DNA of 63,051 bases, counting the filler, from Octopus bimaculoides (Eukaryota), in NCBI RefSeq assembly GCF_001194135.2. It is 4 parts of 4 records of this genome, joined end to end, with 100 filler letters (N's around TTAATTAATTAA, not from the genome) between each part and the next. Parts side by side here need not be neighbours in the genome. Positions count along the whole stretch, not along the records: positions 1 to 28,489 come from NC_068985.1; positions 28,590 to 59,165 come from NC_068983.1; positions 59,266 to 61,078 come from NC_068988.1; positions 61,179 to 63,051 come from NW_026307240.1. The stretch is one strand, 5' to 3'. This document shows positions 8,696 through 61,716 of this stretch, in pieces. Position 1 is the first letter of the stretch, and every line of letters begins with the position of its first letter. Both the position numbers and the translations under genes were made by a program. The notes beneath the pieces are model-generated. The model ran no database searches. It saw only the letters and a program-made list of their open reading frames with translations, and was not told the origin of the DNA.

Positions 8696-9142
8696 AGTAA
8701 AATTGCTATGCTATTATCAGTCCGAACATGCTTGATGCACGTTCGAATACGAGGACAAGCTACTCACTGAATTCTGTCATGGAGAATATATCTCACTTGT
8801 TGACAAATTGTGTGTCTACACGTAGATCAGCTTGCAGCACCACCTACCTAGACAGTGAGGTGCTATCATTTCGGAGTAGTTATCTCCTCTTCGGTGGCAA
8901 ACACTAGGCAGACTACGATCAGCTCGTAGCGTCGTATGCCTAGTATCTGTGACCGCAGGGGGAAATAACTACTCTGAAATGCTAGGATCTCGCAGTCTAG
9001 GTAGGTGGCGCTGCGAGCTGATCCAGGTGTATATTGTCGACAAACGGGATATATTCTCTGTGACAAAACACATTGAATCGGTTATTCCCCAGTTCAAACG
9101 TGCATCAAGCATATTCAGATTGATAATAACATGACATTTACT
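8696..9142. mobile_element. ~450-bp imperfect palindrome with degenerate hammerhead-like core in each arm; probable Penelope-like inverted pLTR
   Basis: The arms mirror around ctacga-tcagc-tcgtag (~8912-8929). Minus strand 8869-8894 reads CCGAAGA-GGAG-ataacta-CTCC-GAAA. The palindrome is certain; the PLE assignment is inference. Confidence 0.7.
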
Positions 9143-9149
9143 AGATATA

Positions 9150-9384
9150 TCGCAAACTACTTTTTCGGCAAACGGATTTAGCAGAGAATATAGAAACTTT
9201 CAAGGTTTTATGAACTTCCAGATTCTAAGAAGGGTTTGGAAGCGTATCTAATGTGGTTTGCCTTAAATGCATGTTTATACGTTTATGAGAGCCGTCAAGA
9301 AACCATCGGAGTATTTTGTTGTGTTCAGGGATAGGGTATCACATATATTAGATATTCTGTATCAAAGTAAATATTTGCTGCTAC

Positions 9385-9385
<1 letters not shown>
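9150..9385 (-). mobile_element. Possible degenerate GIY-YIG endonuclease remnant running into the palindrome, ending at (TA)n
   Basis: Frames give DTEYLIYVIPYP* and HKRINMHLRQ, loosely like the PLE GIY-YIG NLIYxIxC...LxxRxxxH pattern. The YIG motif itself is not recognisable. Confidence 0.3.
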
Positions 9386-9428
<43 letters not shown>

Positions 9429-9585
9429 CACTTAGATATGTATCGACCAAAGATTGTTCCAAGCCATGTCTAACTTAATAGCACCACCTGATAGGATTAT
9501 CTAAATCCTTTTTAAATCAAGTTTTGTGGTATAATCATCCATCCAAGTAGTGAGTTGTTGTTGAGTGAGTTGTATATATATACAT

Positions 9586-9621
<36 letters not shown>

Positions 9622-9849
9622 TTATGTATGTATGTACGTCGTGTGTATATAGGTATATATACTTGTATTCATGTTTGTGTACATCAGGAGTCGGATCCTT
9701 GACTGTCACGTGTGCAAGTAAGCTGTTCACCATTTATTATTATACATAACTGGATAAACCACGTAATAAATAAATTATTTCTGTTGAGCAATTACCTCAT
9801 GTTGTAATAAACAGCAGCAGTTTATTTTTCAAAACGTTAGAAGATTTTA

Positions 9850-10760
9850 GAAATGAATTGATGTTTTCGCTTCATCCAATCTCGATCTTCTCTAGAGCAT
9901 TCCTGTGTTTATGGGAAATGTTTATTTTACTCTGAATTCCTGCGTGGGACCTTCTTGAATATCTATATTTCAATATGAGTAGCTTGTTTGTTAAAACTAT
10001 ACGAAGTCTTTGTTCTTTGCCGCATCCTTTGAAACGATAATTTGTCCCAGCTTGGAATTGTTTCCTTGACATTCGTAATGGATAATCTTGTATATTCGAT
10101 ATAAATTCTTTTAGTTTTATGCTATTGTCTTGAATACTGATAATTTCAGAATAATCCTGTTCTCTTTTTATTGATTTAGTTTGAGGCTATAAGAAACTGA
10201 AACAAAACAGACCGAAATTGCTGAGCTATATTCTCATGTTGAACAGAAATCATAAATTCTGGTTCCATATAGCCAGACACGATTGTATGTGCCGCTTTCG
10301 GCTCATGGGTAAATTCTGTATTATTTGTTAAGCAGAGATCTAACGGATTGTTGGATTTCGTCGGATAAAGGATAATTTGTTTTATAAACAGTGTATGATT
10401 AGGGTCCAGCAAGGATACAATCTATGACATTTCTTAAATAATATTTCACTTTGGTCTTTTGAATCCAGATGGATTGAAATCATGCGAATGCGAAACAATA
10501 CACATATACTGATCCATTTCCATTAATACAGCATCCAAAGCGGTATTCAAATTCTACACTGCAATCTGAGAAATCTGGACGTTACTGTTTTGTAGATGTT
10601 ACCCACATTGATTTCGAAAGTAGAACCATCACTTCGACATCCTCATCAACGCATACATTTCTATTATAAACCTCTGTTTCTTTCGTGTCAGCATCAATGA
10701 TTACATAAAGATGTAAGCGCATTTCTACACAGAATATATGTACTTGTAGATATCACTTTT
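9850..10760 (-). mobile_element. CR1/L2-type LINE ORF2 fragment (APE endonuclease C-terminal half), degenerate
   Basis: ORF 10176-10412 has FIKQIILYPTKSNNPLDLCLTNN, matching the CR1 PTRxxNxLDLxxTN motif. The upper boundary is uncertain. Confidence 0.65.
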
Positions 10761-10913
10761 TCTGCAGTTGCCATTGATATTGGCTTAGGATTTTGGCTCA
10801 ACGTCATGAATTTGGCGGCGGTGCTAAGTTGATTAAATCCACTCCAATATTTAATTACTCCTCATTTTAATTGACATGGATATTAAGTCATTTAGTGTGA
10901 TGAGGCAGATTCA

Positions 10914-11272
10914 TTCTTTTACTTGTTTCAGTCATTTGACTCCGGCCATGCTGGAGCACCGCCTTTAGTCGAACAAATCGACCCCAGGACTTATTCTTTG
11001 TAAGCCTAGTACTTATTCTATCGGGCTCTTTTGCCGAACCGCTAGTTACAGGGACATAAACACAGCCACATCCGTTGGTGATAGTAGGATCACAAAAACA
11101 CAAACACACACATATATATACGACGGGCTTCTTTCAGTTTCCTTCTACCAAATTCACTCACTAGGCTTTGGTCACCCCGAGGCTATAGTATAAGACATTT
11201 GCCCAAGGCGCCACGCAATGGGACTGAACCCGAAACCATGTGGTTGAGAAGCAGGCTGCTTACCACACAGCC
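10914..11272 (-). mobile_element. tRNA-derived SINE, family C (octopus OK-like)
   Basis: Head ggctgtgtggtaagcagcctgcttctcaaccacatggtttcgggttcagtccc, CORE-like ccttgggcaaatgtctt, and tail ending gactgaaacaagtaaaagaa. Related copies at 24.3 kb and 32 kb. Confidence 0.85.
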
Positions 11273-11631: not shown

Positions 11632-11835
11632 GGCACAAAGCCTTGAAAAGTTTTGGGAAACGGTGGCTATTCGAAAATATCGACCTCAGTGCATAACTGG
11701 TATTTATTTCATCGACTCCGAAGGATGAAAGGCAAAGTCGCCCGCAGCAGAATTTGAACTCAGAGAATAGCGGCAGACGAAATTTCGCTAAGCATTTCAT
11801 CCGGCGTGCTAACGATTCTGCCAGCTCACCGCCTT
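11632..11835 (-). mobile_element. tRNA-derived SINE, family A
   Basis: Shares gagttcaaatt (B box) and gcctttcatccttcggagtcgat core with copies at 18.75, 18.98, 28.7, 39.0 and 54.5 kb. Confidence 0.8.
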
Positions 11836-11856
11836 ACTATTCTACTAATAATGGTT

Positions 11857-12068
11857 TCATATTTTGGCACAAGGCCAGCAATTTTATAGGCCTGATGGGG
11901 GGGGGGGTAAGTCGATTACATCGATCCCTGGACAAAATTGGTACTTATTTTATCGACCCATAAAGGATGAAAGGCAAAGCGAAATTTGAACTCAGAACGT
12001 TAAGGCGGACGAAAATGTAGCAAATCATTTCCCCCGGTGCTCTACCTTTTCTGCTAGCTCGTCATCTT
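11857..12068 (-). mobile_element. SINE family A, second tandem copy
   Basis: Same core (ggatgaaaggcaaag...aatttgaactcagaacgt) directly adjacent to the previous copy. Confidence 0.75.
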
Positions 12069-13794
12069 ACTTTTCCTATAGATAATAAGGACAAATATTT
12101 ACTGGCGAGTAGAGTGAAACATGTATATGGACGTTTGCATCAATAACAGCATTTGTAAGCAATCTATTTACGCTGAAGGACACATTCTGCAACAAAATAT
12201 ATATTTTTCTGCCTTATCATGATCATGATAACACGGTCACTATCAGAGATATCGGAAATCGGAAACTTAGACGGTCTACTTTTATTAACAAAAATTAAAT
12301 CACACCACCGACAAATGATAAGAATAGCGCCACGCTATTTAGCTAATAAGTCATTACATATATACATATATTTGTACAAATCTGAGTTGAGTGCAATGGA
12401 TAGTTTCTTTTGGTAACGTCATTATAGAGGATGTAGAGCAGAGATATCGAAATCTGAGTTAAAAGTGTAACTTGCTTTGTCTTATGGTTTTGTTTTCTCA
12501 CTTTTATTTCCAACTTGCAGTATTGTGATACACTAAACCACTTGAAACTCCACTTCACAATATTTCAATACACACATACACACGCACGCATACATACACG
12601 CACGCTTGCAAGCACTCACATATATGTATATTCATTTACATGCCTATGTGTATACATATATATAAGTATATATATATCAATTATATATATNNNNNNNNNN
12701 NNNNNNNNNNNNNNNNNNNNNNNNNNNNNNNNNNNNNNNNNNNNNNNNNNNNNNNNNNNNNNNNNNNNNNNNNNNNNNNNNNNNNNNNNNNNNNNNNNNN
12801 NNNNNNNNNNNNNNNNNNNNNNNNNNNNNNNNNNNNNNNNNNNNNNNNNNNNNNNNNNNNNNNNNNNNNNNNNNNNNNNNNNNNNNNNNNNNNNNNNNNN
12901 NNNNNNNNNNNNNNNNNNNNNNNNNNNNNNNNNNNNNNNNNNNNNNNNNNNNNNNNNNNNNNNNNNNNNNNNNNNNNNNNNNNNNNNNNNNNNNNNNNNN
13001 NNNNNNNNNNNNNNNNNNNNNNNNNNNNNNNNNNNNNNNNNNNNNNNNNNNNNNNNNNNNNNNNNNNNNNNNNNNNNNNNNNNNNNNNNNNNNNNNNNNN
13101 NNNNNNNNNNNNNNNNNNNNNNNNNNNNNNNNNNNNNNNNNNNNNNNNNNNNNNNNNNNNNNNNNNNNNNNNNNNNNNNNNNNNNNNNNNNNNNNNNNNN
13201 NNNNNNNNNNNNNNNNNNNNNNNNNNNNNNNNNNNNNNNNNNNNNNNNNNNNNNNNNNNNNNNNNNNNNNNNNNNNNNNNNNNNNNNNNNNNNNNNNNNN
13301 NNNNNNNNNNNNNNNNNNNNNNNNNNNNNNNNNNNNNNNNNNNNNNNNNNNNNNNNNNNNNNNNNNNNNNNNNNNNNNNNNNNNNNNNNNNNNNNNNNNN
13401 NNNNNNNNNNNNNNNNNNNNNNNNNNNNNNNNNNNNNNNNNNNNNNNNNNNNNNNNNNNNNNNNNNNNNNNNNNNNNNNNNNNNNNNNNNNNNNNNNNNN
13501 NNNNNNNNNNNNNNNNNNNNNNNNNNNNNNNNNNNNNNNNNNNNNNNNNNNNNNNNNNNNNNNNNNNNNNNNNNNNNNNNNNNNNNNNNNNNNNNNNNNN
13601 NNNNNNNNNNNNNNNNNNNNNNNNNNNNNNNNNNNNNATATACTGATACGACGCAAATGCTTATATACATATAGATTTATGTCAATAAATGAAATCGGAT
13701 AAATTCGTCCTGCGCCCCAGGAACATTGGAAAGGGGTGAAGTAGTCATGGCTGATTTGGTGCTGACCTAGATCAAAAATTAATGTTGTTTTCTT

Positions 13795-13963
13795 ACATAG
13801 CGACATTTCGTACATTGTACGTTCTGAGTTCAAATTCCACCGAGGCCCATTTTGTCCATATTTCGGGGTCGATGAAATAAGTAGCTGTTGAGCACTGCTC
13901 TCGATTGAAAAGACTTGTGTACTTTCTCGAGGCTGCTGGCCTCGTGCCAAAATTTGAAAACAA
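13795..13963 (+). mobile_element. SINE family A, partial
   Basis: cgttctgagttcaaattccaccgagg...ttcggggtcgatgaaataagta...gtgccaaaatttgaaa. Confidence 0.7.
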
Positions 13964-15567
13964 TATTAAAATGAGATATTCTAATCATAATTATTCGCAG
14001 CTATAATGTCTAGGGAGCACATCTATAGAGGTTTCATAGTTTTCTTTTCAAACCATAGGCTTCTATTTGAGAGAGATTTTTGTAGCTTTTCTGCCCAATC
14101 ATGTAACTACATAAATGATCAATCACTTGACCGTTCAAGATTTACTATTAAGAAATCTAAAATCTACGGTCTATCACGGCATTTTCTACAACATTTTAAA
14201 ATTTAGTTGTTTAAAATGAACAAGGAAAATAATTGTTAAAATATTTTCAACTATAGCTAAATGAACATTCATGAATAATTTCAAAATTTATATTTTTGCA
14301 ATTATGAACATTTTCATAATTTATGAAGCCAGTCTTGTTTCAAAAATAAACTAAAAATATACAACGATCTATGAAAACGTTTGTGGATCATTTTAACAGC
14401 ATTATGGTTTCTCATTCAAAATAAATTTGTTTGGCTCTGAATAGAGACATATTTAGCTCATTCTATTTTACTCTTGATTACACAAGCTAATTTCCTTCTT
14501 CGATTTGCAAGCGATAAGAAATTCTGCTTGAACTTGTGTGAATTTCTATTCCCACTCTGATTACTAGCCTAGGGTCATATCTCCAGCATGATCTAGATTT
14601 GATATAGAATCTTACAATCTCAATTCTTTCTCACAAATATGTAATATATATNNNNNNNNNNNNNNNNNNNNNNNNNNNNNNNNNNNNNNNNNNNNNNNNN
14701 NNNNNNNNNNNNNNNNNNNNNNNNNNNNNNNNNNNNNNNNNNNNNNNNNNNNNNNNNNNNNNNNNNNNNNNNNNNNNNNNNNNNNNNNNNNNNNNNNNNN
14801 NNNNNNNNNNNNNNNNNNNNNNNNNNNNNNNNNNNNNNNNNNNNNNNNNNNNNNNNNNNNNNNNNNNNNNNNNNNNNNNNNNNNNNNNNNNNNNNNNNNN
14901 NNNNNNNNNNNNNNNNNNNNNNNNNNNNNNNNNNNNNNNNNNNNNNNNNNNNNNNNNNNNNNNNNNNNNNNNNNNNNNNNNNNNNNNNNNNNNNNNNNNN
15001 NNNNNNNNNNNNNNNNNNNNNNNNNNNNNNNNNNNNNNNNNNNNNNNNNNNNNNNNNNNNNNNNNNNNNNNNNNNNNNNNNNNNNNNNNNNNNNNNNNNN
15101 NNNNNNNNNNNNNNNNNNNNNNNNNNNNNNNNNNNNNNNNNNNNNNNNNNNNNNNNNNNNNNNNNNNNNNNNNNNNNNNNNNNNNNNNNNNNNNNNNNNN
15201 NNNNNNNNNNNNNNNNNNNNNNNNNNNNNNNNNNNNNNNNNNNNNNNNNNNNNNNNNNNNNNNNNNNNNNNNNNNNNNNNNNNNNNNNNNNNNNNNNNNN
15301 NNNNNNNNNNNNNNNNNNNNNNNNNNNNNNNNNNNNNNNNNNNNNNNNNNNNNNNNNNNNNNNNNNNNNNNNNNNNNNNNNNNNNNNNNNNNATATATAT
15401 ATATATATATATATACATATATTGATTGGATATCTGCTTTCGATCACCAAGAACTGCAGCTAAGGTCTGATGCTTGTGGACCTTAAAATGTCTTTTGAGG
15501 TTTCCGTTAGATTTTCAGACCTCATGGCACACACGGAATTGACATACATACATACATAGATACATAC

Positions 15568-16544: not shown

Positions 16545-16935
16545 TATATATATATAGTTGAAATTTTCAGAAAGACAAAAGACGAAGATATGTGTATAAA
16601 CAACAAGCAGGTGTATAAATTTGACGCTTGGGAAAGTGAGAAAGTCTTTTACGTTTCGAGCCTATGCTCTTCAACAGAGAGGAATTGAGCGGTATTGGTC
16701 GAGATGACCCAAGACGGGCAGGTAAGGCTATGCAAGTGCTGTGGAAGGACCGTAGTTAAACTCTCGGTTCGATAATGATACAAGTGAGGAGCCTAACGCG
16801 TGTCTTGTATGTTAAATGAAATGAGACAATAAAGCCAAGGCTGTGTGGAATTTTCAGGACATTAATAAAGGGAAAGTTAGTCTTACACCTGTTTCTGAGA
16901 TTTTAGGGATACCCCTTCATCAGAAGCGATGTGAG
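16545..16935 (-). mobile_element. (TA)n-adjacent insert with two degenerate hammerhead-like motifs
   Basis: Minus strand 16641-16680: CTGTTGA-A-GAGC-atag-GCTC-GAAACGTA. Minus strand 16882-16930: CTGATGA-A-ggggtatccctaaaatctca-GAAACAGGTGTA. Confidence 0.45.
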
Positions 16936-17487: not shown

Positions 17488-17538
<51 letters not shown>

Positions 17539-17794
17539 CATAATATGGTAAAAATTCGATATTAATTAATATCAATTTAATACCAGGAAACTAGCACATT
17601 AAAAGAATCAGAAGGTTATTGAAAAATTTTTTTTCAAGATCCTAAAAAGATTATAGTACTCGTGTATATAAGATTGACCAGTGACCGGTCTGTCAAAATG
17701 CTAGAAGAAGCTCACTTAAAAAATTCTCAAATACGGATTCAGCGGAGCAAAAACAGGCCGGCTAGACCAGGGAAAATTGTACATACCTCGATTA

Positions 17795-17860
17795 TCTGCA
17801 GACTATAGTTTCAAAATCAACACTTTCAAAATAAAAGTGTCTATTTATCTTCAGTACAAA
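17795..17860 (-). ncRNA. Type I hammerhead ribozyme motif, intact catalytic core
   Basis: Minus strand: tttgta-CTGAAGA-taaatagacacttttattttgaaagtgttgatttt-GAAACTATAGTC-tgcaga. Stem I has 6 bp (2 GU), stem II is long with a basal U-U mismatch, stem III is palindromic (ACTATAGT), and the site is GUC. Lies in an insert between two (TA)n tracts (17531-17975). Confidence 0.7.
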
Positions 17861-18002
17861 TTGCCGATATTCTTATAATCGAACAGAATCTCGTGCTAGT
17901 TGTCTTCAACTAGTGAAAGCGTGCACGTGATTCTATCCATTATAAAGATTAAAATTCAAAAGTCTTAGTTTATATATATATGTACATATATTAAAATAAA
18001 TA

Positions 18003-18085: not shown

Positions 18086-18749
18086 AAACACACTTATTGT
18101 GTAATATAATTTCTGCTTATTAGAGTAAGGAATATTTTATTCAGAATGCATCATTCATCATTATTATTTTCGTATCTTCTCTGTTTCTACGACAATTATA
18201 GCATGTCTCTTTCATTTAGTTGTAATTTCTAAAACGATATCATTATGGCCAGCTAAAATGAATGGCTTATCATGTACAGCTGCCTGTGCTGATGGTTATG
18301 GCTGCTTACTTAATTCATCACTTAATCTTGTCACGTTATTTTGGAATTGATTTCAAACGAAGTTTTAAAATCTTGTAAACGAGTGTATATTTTTATCATA
18401 TTACGATAAAATATGTATTATGATCCAATTTAGGAACTTCAAAGTCCTAGCACTTAAAACTAGAAATAAGAGCTAAGTCCCCAGCATACCATTCTATACC
18501 ACGTGAGAAGAGCTCACGTTGAATGATGACGTCGGGTAGAAATAATTCTGACTGATCCTATCTTCATAGTTTCTGTCTGAGCAGGGCTTTGTTGGGGCCA
18601 ACAAGCTACAACAAAACCACGAAAGACAAAGTATAGAATAACATAATTTGTAAAATGGCTTTTTGCAAGCAAAATCTATCTACAATAGCTAACAAGGCAG
18701 TAACCAAGTTCAGGATATCATGCTGGCTCATATTATTATTTTGTATTTC

Positions 18750-18962
18750 AAGGCGGCAACATGGCAGAATCGTGAGCACGTCAGGCGAAATGCTTAGCGG
18801 TATTTCGTCTGTCTTTACGTTCTGAGTTCAAATTCCACCGAGGTCGACTTTGCTTTTCATCTTTTCATGGTCGATAAATTAAGTACCAGTTGTGTACTGG
18901 AATCGATCTAATCGACTGGCCCCATCCACGAAAATTTCGGGTCTCTGCCTAGATTAGAAAAG
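18750..18962 (+). mobile_element. SINE family A, near full length
   Basis: aaggcggcaacatggcagaatcg (A box)...ctgagttcaaattcc (B box)...tttcatcttttcatggtcgataaattaagtaccag. Confidence 0.85.
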
Positions 18963-18978
18963 ATCTTATTTTATATTT

Positions 18979-19185
18979 CAAGGCTGCAAGGTGGCGGAAA
19001 CGTTAGTACGCCGGGCGAAATGCTTAGCGGTATTTCGTCTTTACGTTCTGAGTTCAAATTCCGCCGAGGCAGGCTTTACCTTTCATCCTTTCGGGGTCGA
19101 TTAAATAAGTACCTGCTACGCAGTGGAATCGATATAATCGACTTAATCCCCTTCCCTAAGTTGCCCGTGTGCCAAAAATTTGAAA
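18979..19185 (+). mobile_element. SINE family A, tandem second copy
   Basis: Same architecture immediately downstream of the previous copy. Confidence 0.85.
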
Positions 19186-19250
19186 TCATCATTATTGTAT
19201 ATTTCATTCAAATATGTCTTATGCTCATCTAATACAGAGATAAAGCAACT

Positions 19251-25523: not shown

Positions 25524-27870
25524 CTAGAGCAACGCGACGCGTAATAACGGAGGTGTAAGTTCATGTCTCATAGCCGGCCCCAACACTTTTTCTGAAAAGT
25601 AGGAGTAGCTTATCCAGTTCAGGCTATATTATTAGCATTATCCTGCGTGTGAGAATTTAAAATCACTTCTTTAACTTTCTAAGACATCTCAACGCTTCTA
25701 AAAGCAAAGTTTGTTTGTTTGTTTTCGTTCATCGTAATTTGAGATTATATATAAGTGTGTGTGTGAGCCTGTGTGTGCGTGAGTCAGTGTGTGTACATTG
25801 TGTGTACATTGTGTGTGTGTGTATGCATGTATACGTATTTGTTGCGGACATTGACCAAAAATTTCTATACCTTATAAAAATCTGAAATGTTGTCTGTAAT
25901 CTTCCTCTAAGTAGCTCAACCTCTGCATTTGCTGCTGGAAGCATCTGAGATGGAGGCAGTCTCATAAAGTTAATGGACTATTCTGAATCTTCTGAATTAA
26001 TATATTACTTATTATTTGTATGGGACTACGTATGATTTTCAACGAATTCAAGGTGTCATATCAGGTGATACGTAACCGATACATTAATAAACAGGTAATG
26101 CTAAACACCTTATATAGTTTACGAATATCTTTCTATGTATGAAATTGATTTTACCCTGATCAGCTTGCTTTTATTCTAAACCTGATGATCAATATATAAC
26201 CAAAATCAAATTGTAAGACAGTTTAAAGAGACACAGATTGATTTAACACAGATGTTATCCAGTCAAAATTTTGATTTTGCTAACAATGAAATTTTCAATT
26301 GCATCTTTACTCGAGATAATATGAAATGTCTGAGACGTTTACGACAGTCTGGGCCAATTTTAAAAAGTTAATGGAAGCTTACCAAGTAAGACAGTTTCTA
26401 AAGTAATCTATTATGATTATTCCAAGCGGAAAGAATACTATAAAATAAAGATAAGATATACTGTTAGATTAAAATGGTTTTCAATCAAATAAATCATTAG
26501 TGCATAAATATGGGTGAGCTTTGATGCGAATAATGATTAAGAGGCAGCGATTAAATATATATTTGAAATCTCACAAAAGGTTAGTCAAAAGAATATAATG
26601 TAAATAGTCTTGAAACAATTGTAGAGAGACTGTATCGTTAAGTAAATGAATCTGTACACAACGATATAGAGATGGATACAATATTGTAAATGAAATAACA
26701 ATGTAGGCTTTAGAAGTCTTCGTGTTGTAAGGCGAGGAATTTTAATTAAGATAAAACATTGACAAGTATAAGGCTTTTGTAAATAACTACGTAACGCTAT
26801 AAGAGTGTCAGGATGTGGAATGTACCGAGGACACCTCCTGCATGGCAGAACAATAATATAGAGGATTTAAACACAGATGCTTTAGTAAGACAAATAATTT
26901 TAGTTAATTAAAATTAATATCATTCTTCTGGAGAACAAATAATTAACAAAATGACTAAATTGTCCAAAAGTAAAGCAGGAAAGTAGTAAAGTCAATCCCG
27001 AAATTTAAGATAATTAAAGTTAATTAAATATGGTTTCAAAATCGAACATTATTTCTGACACAGTCTGTTAGTGGATGCTGCTAGTCCTTATTATGTGTAT
27101 AAGTGAAATCAACAATATTGTATCTGAAAGATTGACATTTATGACAGCTATTTCTAATTTTGTTACGACACTATACATCTCGTTATAATCGATTTGATGG
27201 ACACGTTCCAACCACACACTAACACACGTAAAATGTCAACTGAAGTTAATGGTTCTTGCCATTCCTAACGACTCAAAAACAGTATCATAACAAGCAGCAT
27301 ATTCGATATTTTTCCCTCTGCATTCATCACACATACGTTATACTGAATGGACCTACTGCAGAAACCACTCGGTTGCGTTTCATCATTACTATGACCTATC
27401 AGAGCTACATGATGATAAACACAACATACATAAATATCGAAAGTGGGGGAAGATATTCTTCCTGGTATACAAAGCATTGAACTATTTAAAGCTTCCATCT
27501 TGATAAATAAGGTCTAATCCTTTTTTAAAGCCAAATCGGGAAAACCCACTAATTATTAATAGTAATAAACTTTTGGCCAGATTCTACATTTTCGCAGCCA
27601 GTATGTTGTACGTCTTAAGAGGATGAAGAAGTAGGATTGTTCCCTGCATCCATCCATCGACCACCGGGTGGTTATGGATCGATTGATAAAAATGATTGCC
27701 AAAATAGGAAAAGAGGCCACCACAAAATTTCATCAGACGCACATGTAAGCTAGTGAGAATAAATGTATAATTATCCACAATCTATGTTCATTGTGTGTCT
27801 GTGTGTCTGTGTGTTTAACAAATGAGAAAAAGAGAGAATGGAATTCACGAGATTCTTTATTAATCACAAC

Positions 27871-28161
27871 GATCGTTTCGACCCATCTTGCATCGGCCTC
27901 TCGCAGATGAAAACCTGGACAACTGGTTGCGGAGCTTCATCATTCGGTGTGGATGTGTCAGGTCAGGTGATATTTTAACAAGTTTGTAATAACATTCCAA
28001 ACCACAATACCCTGTATCCAACCAGCAACAGGCAAATAAGGAAAGAAATGTATAATTATGGAAGTAAACAAAACCCAGTTTGTTGAGCAAATGATGCACC
28101 GCAACCAGTTGTCCGGAATCTCATTCGCAAGTGACTGATGTAAAAATAGCTCGAAACGATC
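27871..28161. repeat. Diverged fold-back, ~75-bp arms, with hammerhead-like remnants at the outer ends
   Basis: ggacaactggttgcgg (27917-27932) mirrors ccgcaaccagttgtcc (28099-28114). gatcgtttcga (27871) mirrors tcgaaacgatc (28151-28161). Confidence 0.7.
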
Positions 28162-28407
28162 TTCCTGAACAATAAAGAATACTTTTCTATATTTAGATAT
28201 TCTAAATAAATTTTGAAAGTTATGTTATGCAATATTTAAATACTTTTAACAACTTTTATTGTAAGTAAAATGGGCATAATGCCCATTTTACTTCAATATT
28301 TGCCTTAGGAATACAATTCAACATCGTACAGACCGGGCCGAATTCAGGGAGACCCACTAGTATATATGTATGTATGTATGTATCTATCTATACATACATG
28401 CACACAT

Positions 28408-28440: not shown

Positions 28441-28683
28441 CGCACGCTTACACCCCCCACACACATATTTATGTATATATATATATATANNNNNNNNNNN
28501 NNNNNNNNNNNNNNNNNNNNNNNNNNNNNNNNNTTAATTAATTAANNNNNNNNNNNNNNNNNNNNNNNNNNNNNNNNNNNNNNNNNNNNTATATATATAT
28601 GTAATCTCTATAGACGTACGTAATTCTTCTCACAAATACTCTTACATGTACACAAATTTGTCAGGAGATGGACTGATAGAAAT

Positions 28684-28845
28684 ATTATTGGTTTCAAATT
28701 TTTGCAATTTTGCGGAAGGGGTTAAGTCGATTACATCGGTCCCAGTGCTTAACTGCTACTTATTATATCGACCCAGAAAGGATGAAAGGCAAAGTTGGCC
28801 TCGGCGGAATTTGAACTCAGAATGTAAAGACAGTCAAAATGCCGC
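28684..28845 (-). mobile_element. SINE family A
   Basis: ggatgaaaggcaaagttggcctcggcggaatttgaactcagaa. Confidence 0.75.
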
Positions 28846-28849
28846 TGGA

Positions 28850-29439
28850 GGCAAATTCTCGCTTATTAGAAAGCGAAACGATCCAGGTTACACGACGAAA
28901 ACAGTGAAGTTTTGGGGAAAGAGTCTGTTGCTTTAGGAATACATAAAAATCGATGGTTCAAGAAAGTTGATTAAAATTGACGCTGACTTGAATAGTGCCA
29001 AATTCCTCCAGTTGCTGAAGGACAATTTCATACCAGACTTGGATGAAAGTGAGATTTTTCAGCGTGACGGAGCTCCATGCCACAGATCGCGTGCAACTCA
29101 ACAGAGTCTGGCTGATGAAGGTGCTACCGTATTGAATGATTCGGCAGCTCAGAGCGCTGACTTAAACATCATCGAGCAAATATGGACGGAGTTAAAGAGA
29201 AGAGTTCGTCAGAAGAATCCACGCAATCTTGAAGAGTCGTGTGAGCTCAGCCACAGAGATTGGCTTCTCATACCTGTGAAGATGACGAAGGATTTCCATG
29301 CATCTCTTCCCAGGCGCATTGAAGCAATTATTTAAGCTAAGGGAAGCCACATGGAATATCAACAATGTACAGTTTCTTCTTGAAATGTACATTATGTAAT
29401 AAATTTTCATTATAGATATTTTTCAGTTTTAGAACACTG
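28850..29439 (+). mobile_element. Tc1-family transposon 3' half, D35E spacing, with right terminus
   Basis: ORF 28967-29335: FQRDGAPCHRSRATQ...VLNDSAAQSADLNIIEQIW...LPRRIEAII*AKGSH. Ends ...agaacactg followed by TA. Confidence 0.85.
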
Positions 29440-38875: not shown

Positions 38876-38956
38876 TACCATGACTTTCACTAGGTGAACA
38901 ACTATGGAAGATAACAGAACTGCAGTTAATTAATAAGCGATACACTGAACATATAA

Positions 38957-39150
38957 TGGTTCCAAATTTTGGCACAGGGCCAGTAATTTCGGGGGTAGGG
39001 TGTAAGTTGATTGTATCGAAGTCATAATTCAGTCGATACTTATTTTATGTGCCCTGAGAGGATGAAAGGCCAAGCCAACCTCGGCGGAATTGGAACTCAG
39101 AACGTAAAGCTGCTAAGCATTTTGCCCGGTGCAGTAACGATTCTACCACG
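38957..39150 (-). mobile_element. SINE family A
   Basis: ggatgaaaggccaagccaacctcggcggaattggaactcagaacgt. Confidence 0.75.
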
Positions 39151-39724
39151 TATTGTTAGGCGTTTATATCCACTTGAAGTGAGCCAGCAAAAGTTAAGTG
39201 TTCGACCTAGAGCAAACCACAATACCAATAATGGAATTCAAATCATCAAATATTTGGCCGGTAGTTTCAAATACTATCAACATTGCTAATTTCGACTCCT
39301 AATAATGATGATGACAGAAGCAAATATTTAGAACAAACACTTGGGACGGAATTTAATCAGTAACATAAATTGTATATATGTCATATCCGGTTGGGAACGA
39401 ATTATCAATAAGAGTTTTATTACAGTTTGGATACAATAGAAAATAATTGAATGTTGATTTCTCGTATAATTTGGTTTGTGCAGCAAAATTACAACATCCA
39501 GCGTTTAAAATGAAGTGAAGTATCATGAAAATAGTTCGGGCCACGCATATATAACTGTATTTCTGAGAATCGTTCCAAATTGCTGAGTCTTAATTGGATG
39601 TCCATAGTTCATTAACCCTTAATGCCGTTTAAATGAAAGTATTTACTTTTGTGTTCCTAACATGAGTTCCAGCTGGAATTCCTAATATCAAATGCCCAAG
39701 TTCATTATTTGTGAACCAACTAGA

Positions 39725-40016: not shown

Positions 40017-40033
40017 TATATATATACCTGATG

Positions 40034-40718
40034 GTACTAGAAAGTACCAGCTTTCCTAGAAATATAAATCAGATGAACTCCGAAGCCACTGAAAGCTCAC
40101 TGCAAACAAAAATGGTGAAAGCGGATGCTGAATAAAAATTATAGCTCCTACCTTTGCTAAGGCCGCAAAAGGAATGGCAGATAACTTAATATCAATTTCG
40201 GGCTCGGTCCTAAAAAACACTTACCCCTATTTAGAAACATTCAGCTCAACCATGCTTACGTGTTCATGTGAAATCCCAACGCACATTCAAAAACGAATTA
40301 AGTGAATAATTTATAAATATATAAGGATATTATTATTAATAATAAATAATAATATTAGTGGCAATCCAAAGTATGAACCATACAAGCAAGTTTAAAAAAC
40401 ATTATTAATGATATCCTTATATATTTATAAATTATTCACTAAGTTCATTTCTGAATGTGCCACACGAACACACAAGCATAGTTGAGGTGAATGTTTTTAA
40501 ATTTGGCTTTCTTTTCAGCAAACTTAAGTGAAGAGGGATGAGTGTTCTTTAGGAAATCGATATTAAGTTATCTGCCGTTCCTTTTGCGGCCTTTGCAAAG
40601 GTAGGAGGTATAATTTTTATTCACCGCTCGCTTTCACCGTGTTTGTTTTCAGTGAGGTTTCTATGTCTTCGGAGTCCGTTTGACTCCTATTTCTAGCAAA
40701 ACTGGTACTTTCTAGTAC
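40034..40718. mobile_element. ~685-bp fold-back element (~300-bp arms) beside (TA)n, with partial hammerheads in both arms
   Basis: gtactagaaagtaccag (40034) mirrors ctggtactttctagtac (40702). Inner arms agtgaataatttataaatatataaggatat. Plus strand 40521-40569: AACTTAA-GTGAAGA-...-GAAATCGATA-TTAAGTT. Confidence 0.8.
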
Positions 40719-40766
40719 TATAATGTTTTTAAACTAGCCTGTACGGTACATGCTTTGGATTGCCAC

Positions 40767-54204: not shown

Positions 54205-54536
54205 GTCTATCGAATTGTTGATATACATTCTCAACACTACTATTTTCTTCCTATTTCTGTATATATGTGACCACTTCTAACCTGATCTATATTCGATTTG
54301 ATGGTGAAGTCTAACAGGATCGAAACATGCCGGATCCTTTTACTGGTTGGTTGTAAATTCACAGTCATTTCTAGCTTTATTGACTTTCTATTCCAGCCTA
54401 ATTTGTGACTCCACTACCATATACGCGCAAATAAACACAAACAGAACATTGGTACATGCGTATATGCATGCATTCATTCATGGACTTAATTTTGAATTAA
54501 TGGATGCTTTTTTTTTTAAATATAAACAATATTATT

Positions 54537-54748
54537 AAGGTGGCGAGCAGGCAGAATTGTTTGCACGCTGAGCAAAATGCTTAGCAGCATATCGTTTATC
54601 TTTTTGTTCAAATTCTACCGAGGTCAATTTTGCTTTTCATCCTTTCGGGGTCGTTAAAATAAGTACCAGTTGAACACTGGGGTCGGTCTAATCGACTCAC
54701 TTCTCCCTTGAAAATTACTAGCGTTGTACAAACATTTGGAATCAATAT
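54537..54748 (+). mobile_element. SINE family A
   Basis: aaggtggcgagcaggcagaattg...tttcatcctttcggggtcgttaaaataagtaccag. Confidence 0.8.
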
Positions 54749-56768
54749 AAACAATAATATTAACAATGGTAGATGAAGCTTGCAGAATCAGAAGATCGCT
54801 TCAGATTAAATTTTTCTTCATTGGCCTTAGAAATCTATATAAAAAGCATTAACCTTACAAGAACTCGAACCTTGCAAACCGAACCACACTAAATGTTTTT
54901 GTCCTTTTTTTTTTTTCGCAGTAGATTCAAATATTAGTAAATTCTTTACAATATTTCGAGCCTCCGCTGCTCCTCAGCCGACTGTGCTGGTAATTCGTTA
55001 AATAATCATATTGATATCATATGAGAAATTTCAGGCTTTCAATTGGTCGACGTCTTGAATCAAGATGTGATAACATGTTATGTTACAAAATAGCAGAGGT
55101 AGTCTGATTCAAGGCGGCCTAAGTAACTGCTAAATTACTAAAGAAACAATGAAAGGCACAACATAATTATGTTGTTTAACCCCAAATCAGCTCTGTTCGA
55201 CCGGATAATTGGTCAGAGGCGTCCAGGCCGTGATGATCCTGACATTTTATCTGCTTTTCATAGGAAGCCCAGTGATCCGGAGGGAGAATCGATGGTTCGT
55301 GAAAAATTGCCTTCTAAAACTAATGGCTTAGTCACAAACGTTGCTTTCGAACAATGAATATCGGCAAAACGAAAGGGTTGTCTATTTTATGTTTGATATT
55401 GCTCTTAATCACATTGTTCCCATGTTCATGTAACAGTAAATAAATATTTTCATTATCATTTCGGTGATTTTTTTCTTTAAACATAAATCGAAATATGCAG
55501 GTTATTAATTTGCTGTATCGCATTTGATTAATAATCTTAATTCGATTATGTACGATTTATTACTATGAATTATGCAATTCAATTCCCTTAAATCACTCAA
55601 AGGAAACTTTTTAAATATCGACTGCACATGTTTCAACACATATATTGAATCAAATTTCATCTGTTTCCAACATTCTGCAGCTAATTTATTATTACGTCAT
55701 CATATTCTTTTTATTTACCACTTTGCAATAAATGGGCATTTTATAATACGTGGTAATATTGCTCTACCACCAAGTTAATACCATAGCATGTTACAATCTT
55801 CACACCAACTATTTGGATTTCTTGCTATCACTTTCAGTTCAACTTTGACATCATCTTTTTTTTTACTCTATTAATGTTTTTCATAAAAGCGTGATTGCAA
55901 TACCCATTAAGCTCTATACTAATCACTTGCGCCCCAGTAATTTAGGCGGTAAAATAGTATGCAATTATAAAAATGAGGTAATCTCTTTACAGTTAGCAAA
56001 TATATTCCGATAAGACAAGTTTGCAGCATGGTTTCAGTTCACACTTGGAGAAGTTCCATCTTAATTAGATCATAAATACTTATGGTAATCGAACGAATGT
56101 GTTATAAATAATTTTTTACTTTTCAATTTCGAAAGTGGGAGTCATGCGTAATCTTCTATGTTTTATGCATTGTAAGAGAATTAAGTCAAAGTCAGATCCG
56201 TAGGAGATGCATTGTGTCAATTTTTAGATTAGAAGAATAAACTGCCTATCCATCCTAGACATGTTCACTGTAAAGCTGCCCAGAGTTCAATAAACCCAAA
56301 CTTGTCTATTTGATAAGTGCTACCGTGTACTCTTCACGCTTTACATTTTCCTTACCCTTTAGTAAAGAGGACCAGTCTACGCTTATGACGCTTGCGCACT
56401 CTTGGGAACCAAAGAGACTCTATTGTAATACATGTCCATCTTAGACAGCTGTAAGTTAACACCTAGAGGAGAAACATGCGTGGGAAGTGAAATAGTCGTC
56501 TGAAGTAGGTAATTCGGTCTTAATCTTTCCCATACAATATAACAGAGTGATATTGATAATATTCAAATTACATATTCGCCGAATATTTATCCTATGCTTG
56601 TAATCTAGATCACGTCACGGAGCAAAATATATTATATCGCATGCTTTCACAACATATTATTGCATTAGAAAAATGACTTGTCACTAATATCTAATCGCTT
56701 TCTAGAAGTAAAAATTATTCATAGCCCTGATAAATTGCTATATATAATTACTGTATGGGGGCATAATC

Positions 56769-58818: not shown

Positions 58819-58828
58819 TAACTAACTA

Positions 58829-59165: not shown

Positions 59166-59276
59166 NNNNNNNNNNNNNNNNNNNNNNNNNNNNNNNNNNN
59201 NNNNNNNNNTTAATTAATTAANNNNNNNNNNNNNNNNNNNNNNNNNNNNNNNNNNNNNNNNNNNNACTAAGGAGAT

Positions 59277-59359
59277 GAAAGAAGAAGAAGGAGGAAGAGG
59301 AGGAGAAGAAGAAGAAGAAGAAGAAGAAGAAGAAGAAGAAGAAGAAGAAGAAGAAGAAG

Positions 59360-59393
<34 letters not shown>
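59277..59393. repeat. (GAA)n/(CAA)n trinucleotide tract
   Basis: Direct reading. Confidence 0.95.
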
Positions 59394-59906
59394 TCAATGA
59401 TGACGACTTCATCAATTTAATTAGTTGATTAGTTTACATGACATTGACAGAACAAACACTGTATAGCGTCAAGTAACGAATCTACTTTTTTTTAGTGATC
59501 AAATAGACTGCGCGAATACTTTATAACAGTAAACCTAACTAATGAGACAACCGAAACTGCGTTGAAATTTATTCGGTCGAACCAAAAATAAACAAAGTTA
59601 AATCGCCACGGAAATTGCTAGGCTCTATTATCAGTTTTGCCTAGCAGACAAAATGCCCGTCCAAAACACAAATTCCACTTAAAACTCAGAAATTACAATT
59701 CATAGAATGAAAACGTTTTTGATTTCTCATTCTTTTCTTTCTCGTTTAAGTAACTCTTTGAGCCATAGTATGTATAAACATACATACATACATATATAGT
59801 GTGTATACGTTAATATATCGATGTGTGTGTGTGTGTAGACCAATATATATATGAAATTACTTGGAAATAGATGCGTGCCGTACAATTACATAATAAATAG
59901 TATATA

Positions 59907-60634
59907 TATTACAAATAAAAGGGTAAAGGAATATTAATTTATTAATAAATTAATAATTAATAATTTTTACCAAGCACTTCGGTATGTAAACACCATTATC
60001 GGTGAAGAACTTATTTAAAAGTTCTTATAAATTTATAAACATAATTAAGAGATCAGCAACAGTTGCTTCACCACATACCGAAGTTCAGAAATAGCAGCTA
60101 AAGTGCTAAAACTCCAACAGATACCAGTACTTGTAACTCACAAAGTCAAAACAAGAAGAAAAAACAACGAAACTAACCAGTCTTAGTCAATCATAGACGC
60201 GTTTCTGGATCAGAATGGTAAAAACCTTCATTTCCGTCATCAGTATGATATTCTAGTTTGCAGGTTTGAAGATGCAGGCAATTATGCATGCTCGACCAAG
60301 CGACATCATGCATCAACATAATATTACCAGTACCTCCGAACTTACATAGGTCAGTCATTCCATTATCTCTCCTCGAGAATTATCATGTGCGTCACAAGCG
60401 ATACCGCAGAAAATATGCGGTTTACTATCCGGGAGTGAATAATTATTACAAATAAAAGGGTAAAGGAATAATAATTTATTAATAAATTAATAATTAATAA
60501 TTTTTACCAAGCACTTCGGTATGTAAACACCATTATCGGTGAAGAACTTATTTGAGTTTTAGCACTTTAGCTGCTACTTCTGAATTTCGGTATGTGGTGA
60601 AGCAACTGTTGCTGATCCCTTAATTATGTTTATA
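59907..60634. mobile_element. Penelope-like insertion: direct repeat A (59907-60016 / 60444-60553), inverted repeat B (60034-60114 / 60554-60634), hammerhead and GIY-YIG remnant
   Basis: Both repeat pairs are near-identical by direct comparison. The plus frame at 60280-60390 reads GNYACSTK...TYIGQSFHYLSSRI. Ends at (TA)n. Confidence 0.75.
60190..60249 (-). ncRNA. Type I hammerhead ribozyme motif, intact catalytic core
   Basis: Minus strand: atcata-CTGATGA-cggaaatgaaggtttttaccattctgatcca-GAAACGCGTC-tatgat. Perfect 6-bp stem I, canonical palindromic ACGCGT stem III, GUC site. Stem II GGA/UCC with a basal C-A mismatch. Confidence 0.75.
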
Positions 60635-60673
<39 letters not shown>

Positions 60674-60708
60674 TACATGTACATGCCTACATATATATGT
60701 ATATATAC

Positions 60709-61061
60709 ATGCATATATGGGTACAGACGTCTAAAAAGCGGGTACAGGACACCACCAACGGTTCAAACAACATGAAATACGTAAATAAACGAGAAAAAAA
60801 TTAAGAACAGGACAAGTAAACACAGTTGTCTATCTACTCACTTTGAGCATTCGAGAATTTATGGGGGAAACTGTCTTTGAAGACACATATTGTCGTTGAA
60901 TGCTCGAAATGAGGAGTAGATAGACAGCGATGAAGGGTCGTTTCTCTGTGTCTACTCGTCCTGTTGACCATTTTTTCTTGTTTATGCATTTAACCCGTAT
61001 TTAAAACCGTATTTAACCCGTTGTTTGAACCGTTGGTGATGTCCTGTACTCATATATGCAT
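60709..61061. repeat. ~350-bp diverged fold-back between (TA)n tracts
   Basis: gtacaggacaccaccaacggttcaaacaac mirrors gttgtttgaaccgttggtgatgtcctgtac. Inner tgtctatctactc..gagcattc mirrors gaatgctc..gagtagatagaca. Confidence 0.8.
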
Positions 61062-61253
61062 ATATATATATATATATANNNNNNNNNNNNNNNNNNNNNN
61101 NNNNNNNNNNNNNNNNNNNNNNTTAATTAATTAANNNNNNNNNNNNNNNNNNNNNNNNNNNNNNNNNNNNNNNNNNNNATCTACCTGCTAGAAATAAGAG
61201 CTAAAGTCTTAAATTAATCCACTGTACCGCACGAAGATAACAGAGAAAAACAA

Positions 61254-61716
61254 TATGCGAGGAAAACAGAAATAATTAAAACATTTAACAGCATAAATAA
61301 AAATATTATGCAATTAGGGATACCCACAAACCAGGTTTCAGCTTTTGGGTATTTAAACTCTGAGCCTCGTCACTGTGGACCACCAGTTTAAATCCGTGAC
61401 TGTTCATGTTACTCTCTGAGTGTGCAACTGGTTTTGTTTTGCGCCAAAAACAGAGCACATGGTGTATAAAAATTTATAAGCAAAACATTCAAACAGAGAT
61501 TTGAAAGCACCATGTGCTCTGTTTTTGGTGCAAAACAACAGTTGCACAGTCAGAGTTTAACGTGACTGTTATGGATTATTACCCGGTAGGCCACACGGAT
61601 GAGGCTCAGGGTTTAAATACCCAAAAAGCCGAAACCTGGTTTGTGGATATCCCTAATTGCATAATATTTTTATTTGTGCTGTTAAATGTTTTAATTCTTT
61701 CTGTTTTCCTTGCATA
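61254..61716. mobile_element. ~460-bp fold-back (~210-bp arms, 43-bp spacer) with one hammerhead per arm
   Basis: Plus strand 61591-61646: ccaca-CGGATGA-GGCT..AGCC-GAAACCTGGTT-tgtgg. Minus strand 61324-61378: ccaca-GTGACGA-GGCT..AGCT-GAAACCTGGTT-tgtgg. Confidence 0.85.

Follow-up and report, generated by a model that had tools for sequence, protein, structure and literature searches.

The fold-back elements in a 63-kb window of Octopus bimaculoides DNA (the whole stretch that was analysed, 63,051 nucleotides) are probably scars left long ago by 5'-truncated insertions of several Penelope-like families that carry hammerheads; their arms are joined head to head, and their ribozymes point outward and are broken in sequence. 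The most reasonable reading is that the outward polarity arises incidentally when Penelope elements insert. Earlier papers already describe pLTRs inverted head to head and hammerheads paired on opposite strands (2013, 2014 and 2021, with the mechanism in 2024). For annotation, an outward hammerhead together with a one-sided tail marks short fold-backs as Penelope products, which are otherwise readily misfiled as MITEs or unknown repeats.

Inverted repeats and hammerhead remnants in the window

Self-BLAST of the window revealed ten local inverted repeats with arm identities of 70-95%, besides the TIR pair of a mariner:

3652-3899, inverted repeat
3958-4167, inverted repeat
8305-8401, inverted repeat
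8696-9142, inverted repeat, element A (8.7 kb)
27852-28180, inverted repeat, element B (27.9 kb)
28257-28298, inverted repeat
40031-40721, inverted repeat, element C (40.0 kb)
60034-60634, inverted repeat in the 60.0 kb insert
60742-61049, inverted repeat
61242-61728, inverted repeat, element D (61.3 kb)

The ten tested elements are mutually unrelated, with a single 18-nt cross match among them, and the roughly eight unrelated-looking long inverted repeats described in an earlier, sequence-only reading are therefore real. Local fold-backs take up 5.8% of the called bases of the window. The window also contains a LINE fragment, the one named relative of which is a cuttlefish protein (44%).

A structural descriptor applied to the whole window found complete type I hammerhead motifs only at 17854 and 60243, both on the minus strand, and with one core mismatch allowed both arms of element D matched as well. 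Motifs with a palindromic stem III and at most one core mismatch number four in the window versus zero or one in each of 20 dinucleotide shuffles, which answers the question of motif frequency in shuffled sequence that had been raised earlier. In a two-arm test, a hammerhead was sought jointly in both arms of a fold-back and scored against 100 shuffles. An outward motif was obtained for element A (equalled by 0 of 100 shuffles), element D (0 of 100) and element B (3 of 100), while that of element C was not significant (33 of 100); no inward motif rose above chance, and the 3.65, 3.96 and 60.7 kb repeats gave no hammerhead in this test. A candidate at 60.7 kb was dropped as weak, with two mismatches and a non-palindromic stem III, and CUGANGA boxes at 33109 and 54977 failed the structure test and were rejected. 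The uniform outward polarity claimed for the arm hammerheads was found in all four named fold-backs, which by itself is a 1-in-16 event.

The features of these four elements are as follows.

8652-8666, element A, left target-site duplication copy, 14/15 identical to 9131-9145
8667-8707, minus strand, element A, one-sided tail of 41 nt on the left arm, from the left duplication to the mirror of the right arm end
8708-9130, element A, head-to-head fold-back with an arm identity of about 78%
8853-8901, minus strand, element A, left hammerhead remnant with changes U4C and U16.1C
8947-8995, plus strand, element A, right hammerhead remnant with changes U4C, A6C and A9G
9131-9145, element A, right target-site duplication copy, paired with 8652-8666
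27852-28180, element B, arms of 90 nt, 76% alike, spacer of 151 nt
27864-27910, minus strand, element B, left hammerhead-like remnant that keeps GAAAC and stems I-III, the last palindromic
28121-28168, plus strand, element B, right hammerhead-like remnant that keeps GAAAC and stems I-III, the last palindromic
40031-40721, element C, fold-back, arms 84-86% alike
40183-40227, minus strand, element C, left hammerhead remnant, first core box deleted, seen by eye
40523-40567, plus strand, element C, right hammerhead remnant with C3G, 3' side of stem II deleted, seen by eye
40722-40766, plus strand, element C, one-sided tail of 45 nt, followed by (TAT)n
61183-61253, minus strand, element D, left-arm extension of about 70 nt past the position that mirrors the end of the right arm
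61254-61718, element D, head-to-head fold-back with an arm identity of about 85% and (CT)n at its right end
61322-61378, minus strand, element D, left type I hammerhead, C3G in this copy alone (C3 in all other copies)
61591-61648, plus strand, element D, right type I hammerhead, U4G in this copy alone (U4 in other copies)

An intact CUGANGA/GAAA/UH core is present in none of the eight arm copies. The traces are clear at 61.3 and 8.7 kb, where in element A the hammerhead is recoverable from the two arms combined; the 27.9 kb core is non-canonical and has no canonical CUGANGA box, and at 40.0 kb the deletions are complementary, the missing part differing between the arms. A hammerhead or remnant had been assigned to every arm of the four fold-backs, and of this assignment the traces in both arms stand, with all eight copies broken and the 40.0 kb remnant recognised by eye only. 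C3G, a change also present in one arm each of elements C and D, abolishes cleavage (PMC11167929). No Rfam hammerhead reached the gathering score among the matches listed, which included a single weak hammerhead match, to Hammerhead_3 at 61581-61640 (18.8 bits, E 1.1), the others being microRNA-like hairpins on microsatellites; this blank says little because minimal motifs of this sort are poorly covered. A covariance model trained on 45 hammerheads of the control set was too family-specific, recovering no window motif and missing even the complete ones, and is evidence neither way.

Outside the arms, the following single motifs and inserts were located.

16645-16679, minus strand, doubtful hammerhead (16.6 kb) with A6U, a weak stem I and an additional base ahead of stem II
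16882-16926, minus strand, hammerhead remnant absent from the earlier reading, CUGAUGA box intact, extra bases before GAAA
17795-17860, minus strand, complete single type I hammerhead (17.8 kb) with a palindromic 8-nt stem III and a GUC site
59908-60634, minus strand, 60.0 kb insert with (TA)n at either end
about 60188-60249, minus strand, complete hammerhead in the 60.0 kb insert, outside the inverted arms

By sequence, only the lone hammerheads of the 17.8 kb and 60.2 kb positions keep core and stems intact, and folding computed for them as monomers does not produce stem III. Of the three further hammerheads suggested earlier, these two are complete, whereas the one at 16.6 kb is doubtful and fails both scans; the remnant at 16882-16926 fails the stem II test of the structural descriptor. 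The (TA)n association likewise holds in part, for the 17.8 kb insert (about 436 nt, 17534-17969, with runs on both sides), for the 60.0 kb insert and for one end of the 16.6 kb insert, but among the readable ends of fold-backs A-D only one of seven is so flanked. Overall, 10 of 20 element ends lie within 25 nt of (TA)4+ versus 7% of random places, three of those ends being defined by the runs themselves. The 60.0 kb insert also has an inverted end piece of 84 nt (95%) and a direct repeat of 109 nt with one mismatch around a 537-nt unit.

Proposed Penelope-type insertion and the control set

An inverted truncated copy, joined head to head with its 3' ends outward, is found in all four window fold-backs, and one-sided tails or extensions occur in A (41 nt), C (45 nt) and D (about 70 nt). 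The insertion unit of Penelope-like elements (PLEs) comprises a pLTR, an inverted 5'-truncated copy next to it and a 30-40 bp tail (PMC8557442), head-to-head being the most frequent arrangement (PMC3846280), and PMC4209133 describes dual hammerheads 100-700 bp apart on opposite strands. The 15-bp duplication of element A, together with its one-sided tail, is a Penelope signature; a repeat this long was seen in 2 of 150 random boundary pairs. The extension of element D counts against a Penelope origin, being longer than the usual 30-40 nt. It is common to other family copies, and contig pieces of runs X1 and X13 begin at 61183-61188 and continue into the arm. An inverted copy of the element C tail lies at the element centre (40358-40405). 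Neither a target duplication nor a tail was found for element B, and its arms align just 16 nt beyond the cut site. No target duplication was found for B, C or D; the ends of C and D lie in microsatellites or at a gap, which forms the left flank of element D.

No Penelope ORF was matched in the window by tblastn at E 0.5 with Penelope proteins, and Pfam searches of 17 window frames returned just Tc1/mariner and LINE RT pieces; the autonomous PLE sharing a pLTR, for which a search had been advised, was accordingly not found within the window. Penelope membership of the window families rests on anatomy because no such ORF was matched. The proposal of several distinct Penelope-like families with type I hammerheads and a palindromic stem III is supported.

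The control set comprised 105 metagenome loci with 123 minimal hammerhead matches, drawn from one pattern-chosen subfamily with a few overlapping loci; 120 single matches to a generic hammerhead pattern in viral contigs were left out. An upstream (outward) inverted partner accompanies 54 of the 123 hammerheads versus a downstream (inward) partner in 2, both inward cases being adjacent separate copies, and among the 41 hits with at least 500 nt on both sides the figures are 24 and 1. Ribozyme polarity in these fold-backs is thus not random, and outward polarity is likely a general rule in unrelated animal DNA; 54 outward cases against 2 explained inward ones make a small quantitative addition to a known pattern. 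Target duplications of at least 8 nt were present in 22 of 39 control fold-backs (3.4 in shuffled pairings), and a duplication with a one-sided spacer (tail) of 28-45 nt in 16 of 39 (0.5 in shuffled pairings). Control tails measure 31-41 nt. The control hammerhead stems covary. At locus L208 a Penelope-type ORF begins directly after the tail, and at L182 the GIY-YIG end of such an ORF lies upstream of the hammerhead. P0011 is presumably a Penelope protein, by family motifs read in its sequence. Pfam gave no RT or GIY-YIG match in 119 control-locus frames, and full-length Penelope-type proteins were blank too.

On this basis, an element-encoded RT and GIY-YIG protein, supplied in trans, may nick both strands of an AT-rich target, and each nick could then prime cDNA synthesis from a pLTR position about 60-200 nt downstream of its hammerhead. 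If the two starts were separated by a few tens of bases, one arm would end up longer, giving the tail. Both cDNAs would terminate early and be joined at their truncated 5' ends, with repair producing the target-site duplication. A sufficiently long arm would carry the hammerhead outward because the hammerhead sits just upstream of the cDNA start points. Cutting and extension of both target strands and two internal RT starts are reported for PLEs (PMC11167929). Alternatively, self-priming on an antisense template (Arkhipova 2013) would give the same geometry and is indistinguishable here. The hairpin, and the burial of the ribozyme within read-through RNA, would then be side effects, and the copies would decay neutrally afterwards.

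RNA of the element D family and alternative explanations

The element D family has many copies and occurs in a second organism too. Its core at 61373 is intact in all other copies (14 contigs in X1 and 13 in X13) and in RNA reads (17/17 and 6/6), and that at 61597 is intact in nearly all other copies. In the window copy, the core has been lost at about the same rate as the remaining arm sequence. Judged by sequence, the arm hammerheads of element D are decaying copies of a true ribozyme family. Family RNA reached a depth of at most about 55 reads versus more than 14,000 on the neighbouring repeat, matching the DNA depth ratio. The strand of this RNA is unreadable because the libraries read the neighbouring repeat in both directions equally, and no read-end pile-up occurs at the cut site in these standard RNA-seq data of low depth. 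Changes in X21 RNA (A>G 9, T>C 12, C>T 8, G>A 11) resemble by kind those in X1 DNA (A>G 5, T>C 9, C>T 7, G>A 7), and no A-to-G cluster appears among the matches listed for this sparse RNA. Opposite-strand read joints mostly reflect the mirror positions of element D and were left out as evidence of other fold-backs.

Two other origins of the arms have to be weighed. Cut-and-paste movement of MITE or fold-back DNA transposons, with hammerheads contained in or captured by the arms and polarity inherited by descent, is very unlikely. The long inverted arms, many copies and lack of an ORF would suit it, as would the Tc1/mariner elements in the window and element B with neither tail nor duplication, but the ends of A, C and D are asymmetric, the 15-bp duplication of A is offset by its tail, and the true mariner of the window differs in having symmetric 28-bp TIRs with TA. 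Elements A, C and D do not resemble DNA-transposon TIRs with TSDs, a match to which the sequence-only reading had named as counting against itself. Four unrelated families would moreover each need to capture a hammerhead in the same sense, and the control set links the anatomy to Penelope ORFs. An origin of the arms from non-LTR retrozymes, non-coding hammerhead repeats that form small circular RNAs and borrow Penelope machinery, with fold-backs as inverted monomer insertions, is unlikely; it overlaps the Penelope explanation, from which it departs in that the template would be a dedicated non-coding circle and not the end of an autonomous element. A circular or tandem template would account for the further copy of its tail that element C carries upstream of the left arm, and the direct repeat of the 60.0 kb insert, the lack of tblastn matches to Penelope proteins in the arms, the reported derivation of retrozymes from PLEs (10.64898/2026.07.22.740005) and their occurrence in mussel (PMC7229834) point the same way. 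However, partial tandems are normal for PLEs as well, the window contains no hammerhead-containing direct repeat and no element with two tandem hammerhead-bearing units (the working definition in 10.64898/2026.07.22.740005), and RNA of the element D family is scarce and does not pile up at the cut site.

That a selected system keeps the polarity outward, locking the ribozyme in dsRNA and supplying long ADAR/Dicer substrates, is highly improbable. Computed folds of whole elements A and D do give a hammerhead stem probability of 0.00 versus 0.49-0.94 (stems I and II, right arm of D alone) and predict helices in which up to 49-52 pairs follow without interruption. In lizard, editing of Penelope copies is heavy, and octopus is unusually rich in dsRNA (PMC5625713). 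A-to-G changes occur at mirror positions 61663 and 61307 in both RNA runs and in no DNA contig; an RNA-only A-to-C accompanies the change in all four X23 reads over 61655-61663, which points to a paralogue or allele difference. Outward polarity, published before, is also the rule in unrelated animal DNA and follows from insertion, and nothing is left to lock because all eight arm ribozymes are broken. The lock that had been proposed is thus unsupported, and its premise that transcripts from either strand make the antisense copy first survives for read-through RNA, in which the predicted fold buries the ribozyme, but not for transcripts starting between the arms, which would have no antisense copy. 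It is possible, though doubtful, that self-contained long dsRNA in this lineage has its chief source in Penelope-type scars, which would serve as ADAR substrates in read-through RNA of either strand. Were that so and the window representative, much of the exceptional non-coding hyper-editing reported for octopus would follow from the insertion geometry of a retroelement, and the nearly absolute outward rule with its one-sided tails would document two-strand priming on the scale of a genome. Greater importance would follow only if much of cephalopod hyper-editing turned out to fall in the scars, a point beyond the reach of one window and the sparse RNA of one family.

Comparison with known systems

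The palindromic MITE-type Harbinger repeats of Xenopus, which are ADAR substrates (PMC5625713), resemble the window elements in forming a self-contained long hairpin per repeat, and differ in their DNA-transposon origin, symmetric ends and lack of a ribozyme. Naiad PLEs occur in Octopus and target (TA)n (PMC8557442); their inverted insertions adjoining (TA)n make them a candidate source of the hammerhead-free fold-backs at 3.65, 3.96 and 60.7 kb. They do not explain elements A-D or the 17.8 and 60.2 kb inserts, which carry hammerheads or remnants, because Naiads lack canonical hammerheads. Non-LTR retrozymes (PMC7229834; 10.64898/2026.07.22.740005) are similarly short, non-coding, AT-rich and likely PLE-mobilised, with a type I hammerhead, and share the partial tandem traits of element C and the 60.0 kb insert, whereas the window has an inverted rather than direct arrangement and no tandem hammerhead monomer array.

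The hammerheads described in PMC4209133 are likewise of type I with a short palindromic stem III, mostly in solo or truncated copies, and include opposite-strand pairs 100-700 bp apart, noted in Schistosoma, the pair direction not being stated in that passage; stem II is longer in element D and at 17.8 and 60.2 kb, and the core of element B is non-canonical. Compared with EN+ Penelope-like elements (Penelope/Poseidon, Neptune, Nematis and Hydra; PMC8557442, PMC3846280, PMC11167929), the window copies have no ORF, old and decayed arms and the extension of about 70 nt in D. They share with these elements the inverted head-to-head arms with 3' ends outward, the one-arm tail, the variable-length duplication (in element A only), the AT-rich or microsatellite flanks of some inserts, and the hammerhead upstream of the arm end.

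Inverted repeats and hammerhead motifs in the window

Self-BLAST of the window recovered 10 local inverted repeats, bearing out the sequence-only reading, which had counted about eight long ones. It also recovered one mariner with 28-bp TIRs. The local inverted repeats cover 3,414 of 58,595 called bases, and cross-comparison of the 10 elements revealed a single 18-nt match and otherwise nothing in common. No Penelope ORF was found in the window by Pfam analysis of 17 frames, which returned Tc1/mariner and LINE RT pieces, and no tblastn match was obtained there with the longer Penelope-type proteins used as queries.

28937-29335: Tc1-type DDE_3 transposase fragment (Pfam)
37642-38877: decayed mariner, perfect 28-bp TIRs beginning at TA, transposase pieces PF01359 and PF13358
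47900-49960 and 58862-59164: two oppositely oriented LINE fragments, each containing RT remnants, 73% alike
11665-12075, 13798-13968, 18735-19206, 28681-28846, 38952-39151 and 54529-54749: dispersed SINE-like family of ~230 nt

Relatives of the two LINE fragments possess RT, endonuclease and zf-RVT domains, one being named from cuttlefish. The SINE-like family occurs in both orientations, sometimes in tandem, and is a further source of inverted pairs. In three N gaps of the window, N runs of equal length flank a short island of A and T only, identical in each gap; it is likely a scaffolding marker and not sequence.

A type I fold descriptor identified two complete motifs in the window, 17854(-) and 60243(-), both single, the latter lying beyond the inverted arms of the insert that carries it. 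The single hammerheads proposed at 17.8 and 60.2 kb are thus complete, whereas the one proposed at 16.6 kb, with A6U and a weak stem I, fails both scans; a better remnant is present at 16882-16926, at a distance of 240 nt. Allowing one core mismatch added both arms of element D and two non-palindromic matches of a kind also produced by shuffles, while motifs with a palindromic stem III numbered four in the window and never more than one in any of 20 shuffles. Elements A (8.7 kb), B (27.9 kb), C (40.0 kb) and D (61.3 kb) had been described as fold-backs with a hammerhead or hammerhead remnant in each arm, all outward, that is, with the ribozyme sense on the minus strand in the left arm and on the plus strand in the right. 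The polarity holds in 4/4, a 1-in-16 event, but none of the eight arm copies is intact. In a two-arm test, in which each motif base may come from either arm, elements A, B and D yielded an outward motif, equalled in 0/100 (A), 3/100 (B) and 0/100 (D) column shuffles; element C gave no outward motif above chance (33/100), and no inward motif in the fold-backs was better than chance. By eye, element C has lost the first core box in the left arm and the 3' side of stem II in the right, the arms combined making one motif with a C3G change. In element B, GAAAC and a palindromic stem III survive and stems I and II are plausible; neither arm has a canonical first core box.

Insertion anatomy in control loci and in the window

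Metagenome contigs scanned for one minimal hammerhead subfamily provided at least 105 control loci with at least 123 matches; the loci displayed have 30-48% GC, few ORFs and one rolling-stone gene match, and look like animal host DNA. Among the 123 matches listed, the inverted partner is upstream (outward) in 54 and downstream in 2; among those listed that have 500 nt or more on each side, 24 of 41 are outward and 1 inward. The median spacing of hammerhead pairs is 179 nt among the matches listed, and 40 of the 105 loci listed, a few of which overlap, contain an outward pair. Both inward cases (L181, L208) fall between adjacent separate copies. Sufficient flank was available for 39 fold-backs (L153 and L155 excluded as overlaps); 22 of them have a duplication of at least 8 nt, versus a mean of 3.4 in 30 shuffled pairings, and in 16 a 28-45 nt spacer separates the duplication from the arm at one end, versus a mean of 0.5. 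Covariation is seen in stems I and II of 45 control motifs (75 double changes versus 19.5 in shuffles). Two loci match a Penelope-type ORF.

L208, 520-708: Penelope-type ORF match
L182, 437-715: Penelope-type ORF match

The ORF of L208 starts directly after the tail, the one-sided arm extension, and leads in two search steps to the protein P0011 (796 aa), whose end matches L182 immediately upstream of the L182 hammerhead. P0011 is presumably Penelope-type, as judged from RT and C-terminal GIY-YIG motifs that we recognised; a Pfam scan of it recognised no RT or GIY-YIG, and since a full-length protein was missed in this way, Penelope elements are easily overlooked. Based on the polarity, tails, duplications and Penelope ORF links of the control loci, the outward hammerhead fold-back with tail and duplication is an ordinary Penelope insertion product in this unrelated genome set.

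In the window, element A lies between two directly repeated 15-bp copies that differ at one position (8652-8666, 9131-9145), a match equalled by 2/150 random boundary pairs, and 41 nt separate the left copy from the arm. The right arm of element C has a 45-nt tail, an inverted copy of which lies at the element's centre, as expected from a tandem or circular template. No target duplication was found at the ends of elements B, C and D. An insert at 60.0 kb is a complex partial tandem, in which an end piece of 84 nt is inverted and 109 nt are directly repeated. The direct repeat looks much younger than the adjoining 95% inverted arms and is either a recent duplication or an assembly artefact. The (TA)n flanks previously proposed occur at the single inserts and at several repeats lacking a hammerhead, but at only 1/7 readable ends of elements A-D.

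40326-40405: centre of element C, where its tail and AT-rich run recur in inverted form
59908-60016 and 60445-60553: 109-nt direct repeat, 1 mismatch
60705-61065: fold-back without recognisable hammerhead, between TA-rich runs
40683-40696(+), 61188-61201(-), 60085-60098(-), also 30343 and 18473(-): similar 14-nt motif

The fold-back at 60705-61065 is a candidate Naiad-type scar; it may have a 14-nt duplication, with a spacer of 23 nt on one side only. Read in ribozyme sense, versions of the 14-nt motif occur close to the outer (3') end in three hammerhead elements that are unrelated otherwise; they may represent a common recognition or start signal, or be due to chance.

Element D in RNA and DNA reads

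Two RNA runs (X21, X23) and two DNA contig sets (X1, X13) were aligned to 61179-61867 at 80% likeness. Family D is multi-copy and present in the same organism as the window and in a second organism. The left-arm C3 is canonical in all aligned copies (14 X1 contigs, 13 X13 contigs, RNA reads 17/17 and 6/6), and the right-arm U4 in all X1 depth (14 contigs), 287/317 of X13 depth and 2/2 RNA reads; both lesions of element D are therefore private to this locus, and the ribozyme of the family is intact. C3G abolishes cleavage in an Anolis element (PMC11167929). Two lesions in 22 core positions approximate, by calculation, the general divergence of the element D arms, as expected from neutral decay. 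Several contigs begin at 61183-61188 and continue into the left arm, which is thus ~70 nt longer than the right.

61735-61867: very high-copy repeat inserted where element D ends on the right, ~67-nt internal duplication, >14,000 RNA reads

RNA depth on element D is at most ~55, versus >14,000 on this neighbouring repeat. No pile-up of read ends was found on element D, and the kinds of base change are similar in the RNA and DNA data sets. Among the rows listed, with RNA and DNA from different individuals and contigs that omit rare variants, A-to-G on the ribozyme-sense strand appears at 61663 in 6/12 and 4/4 RNA reads and at the mirror place 61307 in 3/11 and 8/12, in 0 DNA contigs at either. 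All 4 X23 reads with the 61663 change also carry A-to-C at 61655. Editing or an expressed paralogue could account for the A-to-G signal, which serves as a lead only.

Origin of the fold-backs

The sequence-only reading had proposed non-autonomous Penelope-like or retrozyme families, with the fold-back locking the ribozyme in dsRNA and providing substrates for ADAR or Dicer, a regulatory role. In computed folds of whole A and whole D read-through RNA, the ribozyme stem probability is 0.00 and helices reach 52 pairs, so burial of the ribozyme is predicted, as a consequence and not as a selected lock; RNA initiated between the arms would escape it. Given that the outward geometry is the ordinary Penelope product and that 0/8 arm cores are intact, the regulatory reading is unsupported and very improbable.

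The fold-backs likely originated as Penelope-like insertion scars. Penelope pLTRs (terminal repeats) contain the hammerhead, reverse transcription begins within the RNA shortly downstream, where a pair of adjacent sites delimits the tail, and both strands of the target are cut and extended by the Penelope protein (PMC11167929). Each of the two nicks could yield a short cDNA; joining of the cDNAs at their truncated 5' ends, a putative step, would produce head-to-head arms with 3' ends outward. Antisense self-priming, proposed to account for head-to-head as the most frequent form (PMC3846280), would yield the same shape.

Overall, the repeats and outward polarity of the sequence-only reading stand, but the arm cores are broken and its 16.6 kb motif is doubtful. 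No paper on hammerhead fold-backs in octopus was found in searches of the main texts of open-access papers; in the available part of a description of Octopus vulgaris Penelope families, ribozymes are unmentioned (PMC13282606). Penelope is heavily edited in lizard, and octopus dsRNA potential is high (PMC5625713). These scars may carry a share of cephalopod hyper-editing. Giant squid has 235 hammerhead matches (PMC6962438), and retrozymes have been described (PMC7229834, 10.64898/2026.07.22.740005). Already published for Penelope-like elements are pLTRs with minimal hammerheads and paired motifs on opposite strands, 100-700 bp apart (PMC4209133), as well as inverted 5'-truncated copies, the 30-40 bp tail, a preference of Naiads and Neptunes for (TA)n, and the presence of Naiads in Octopus (PMC8557442).
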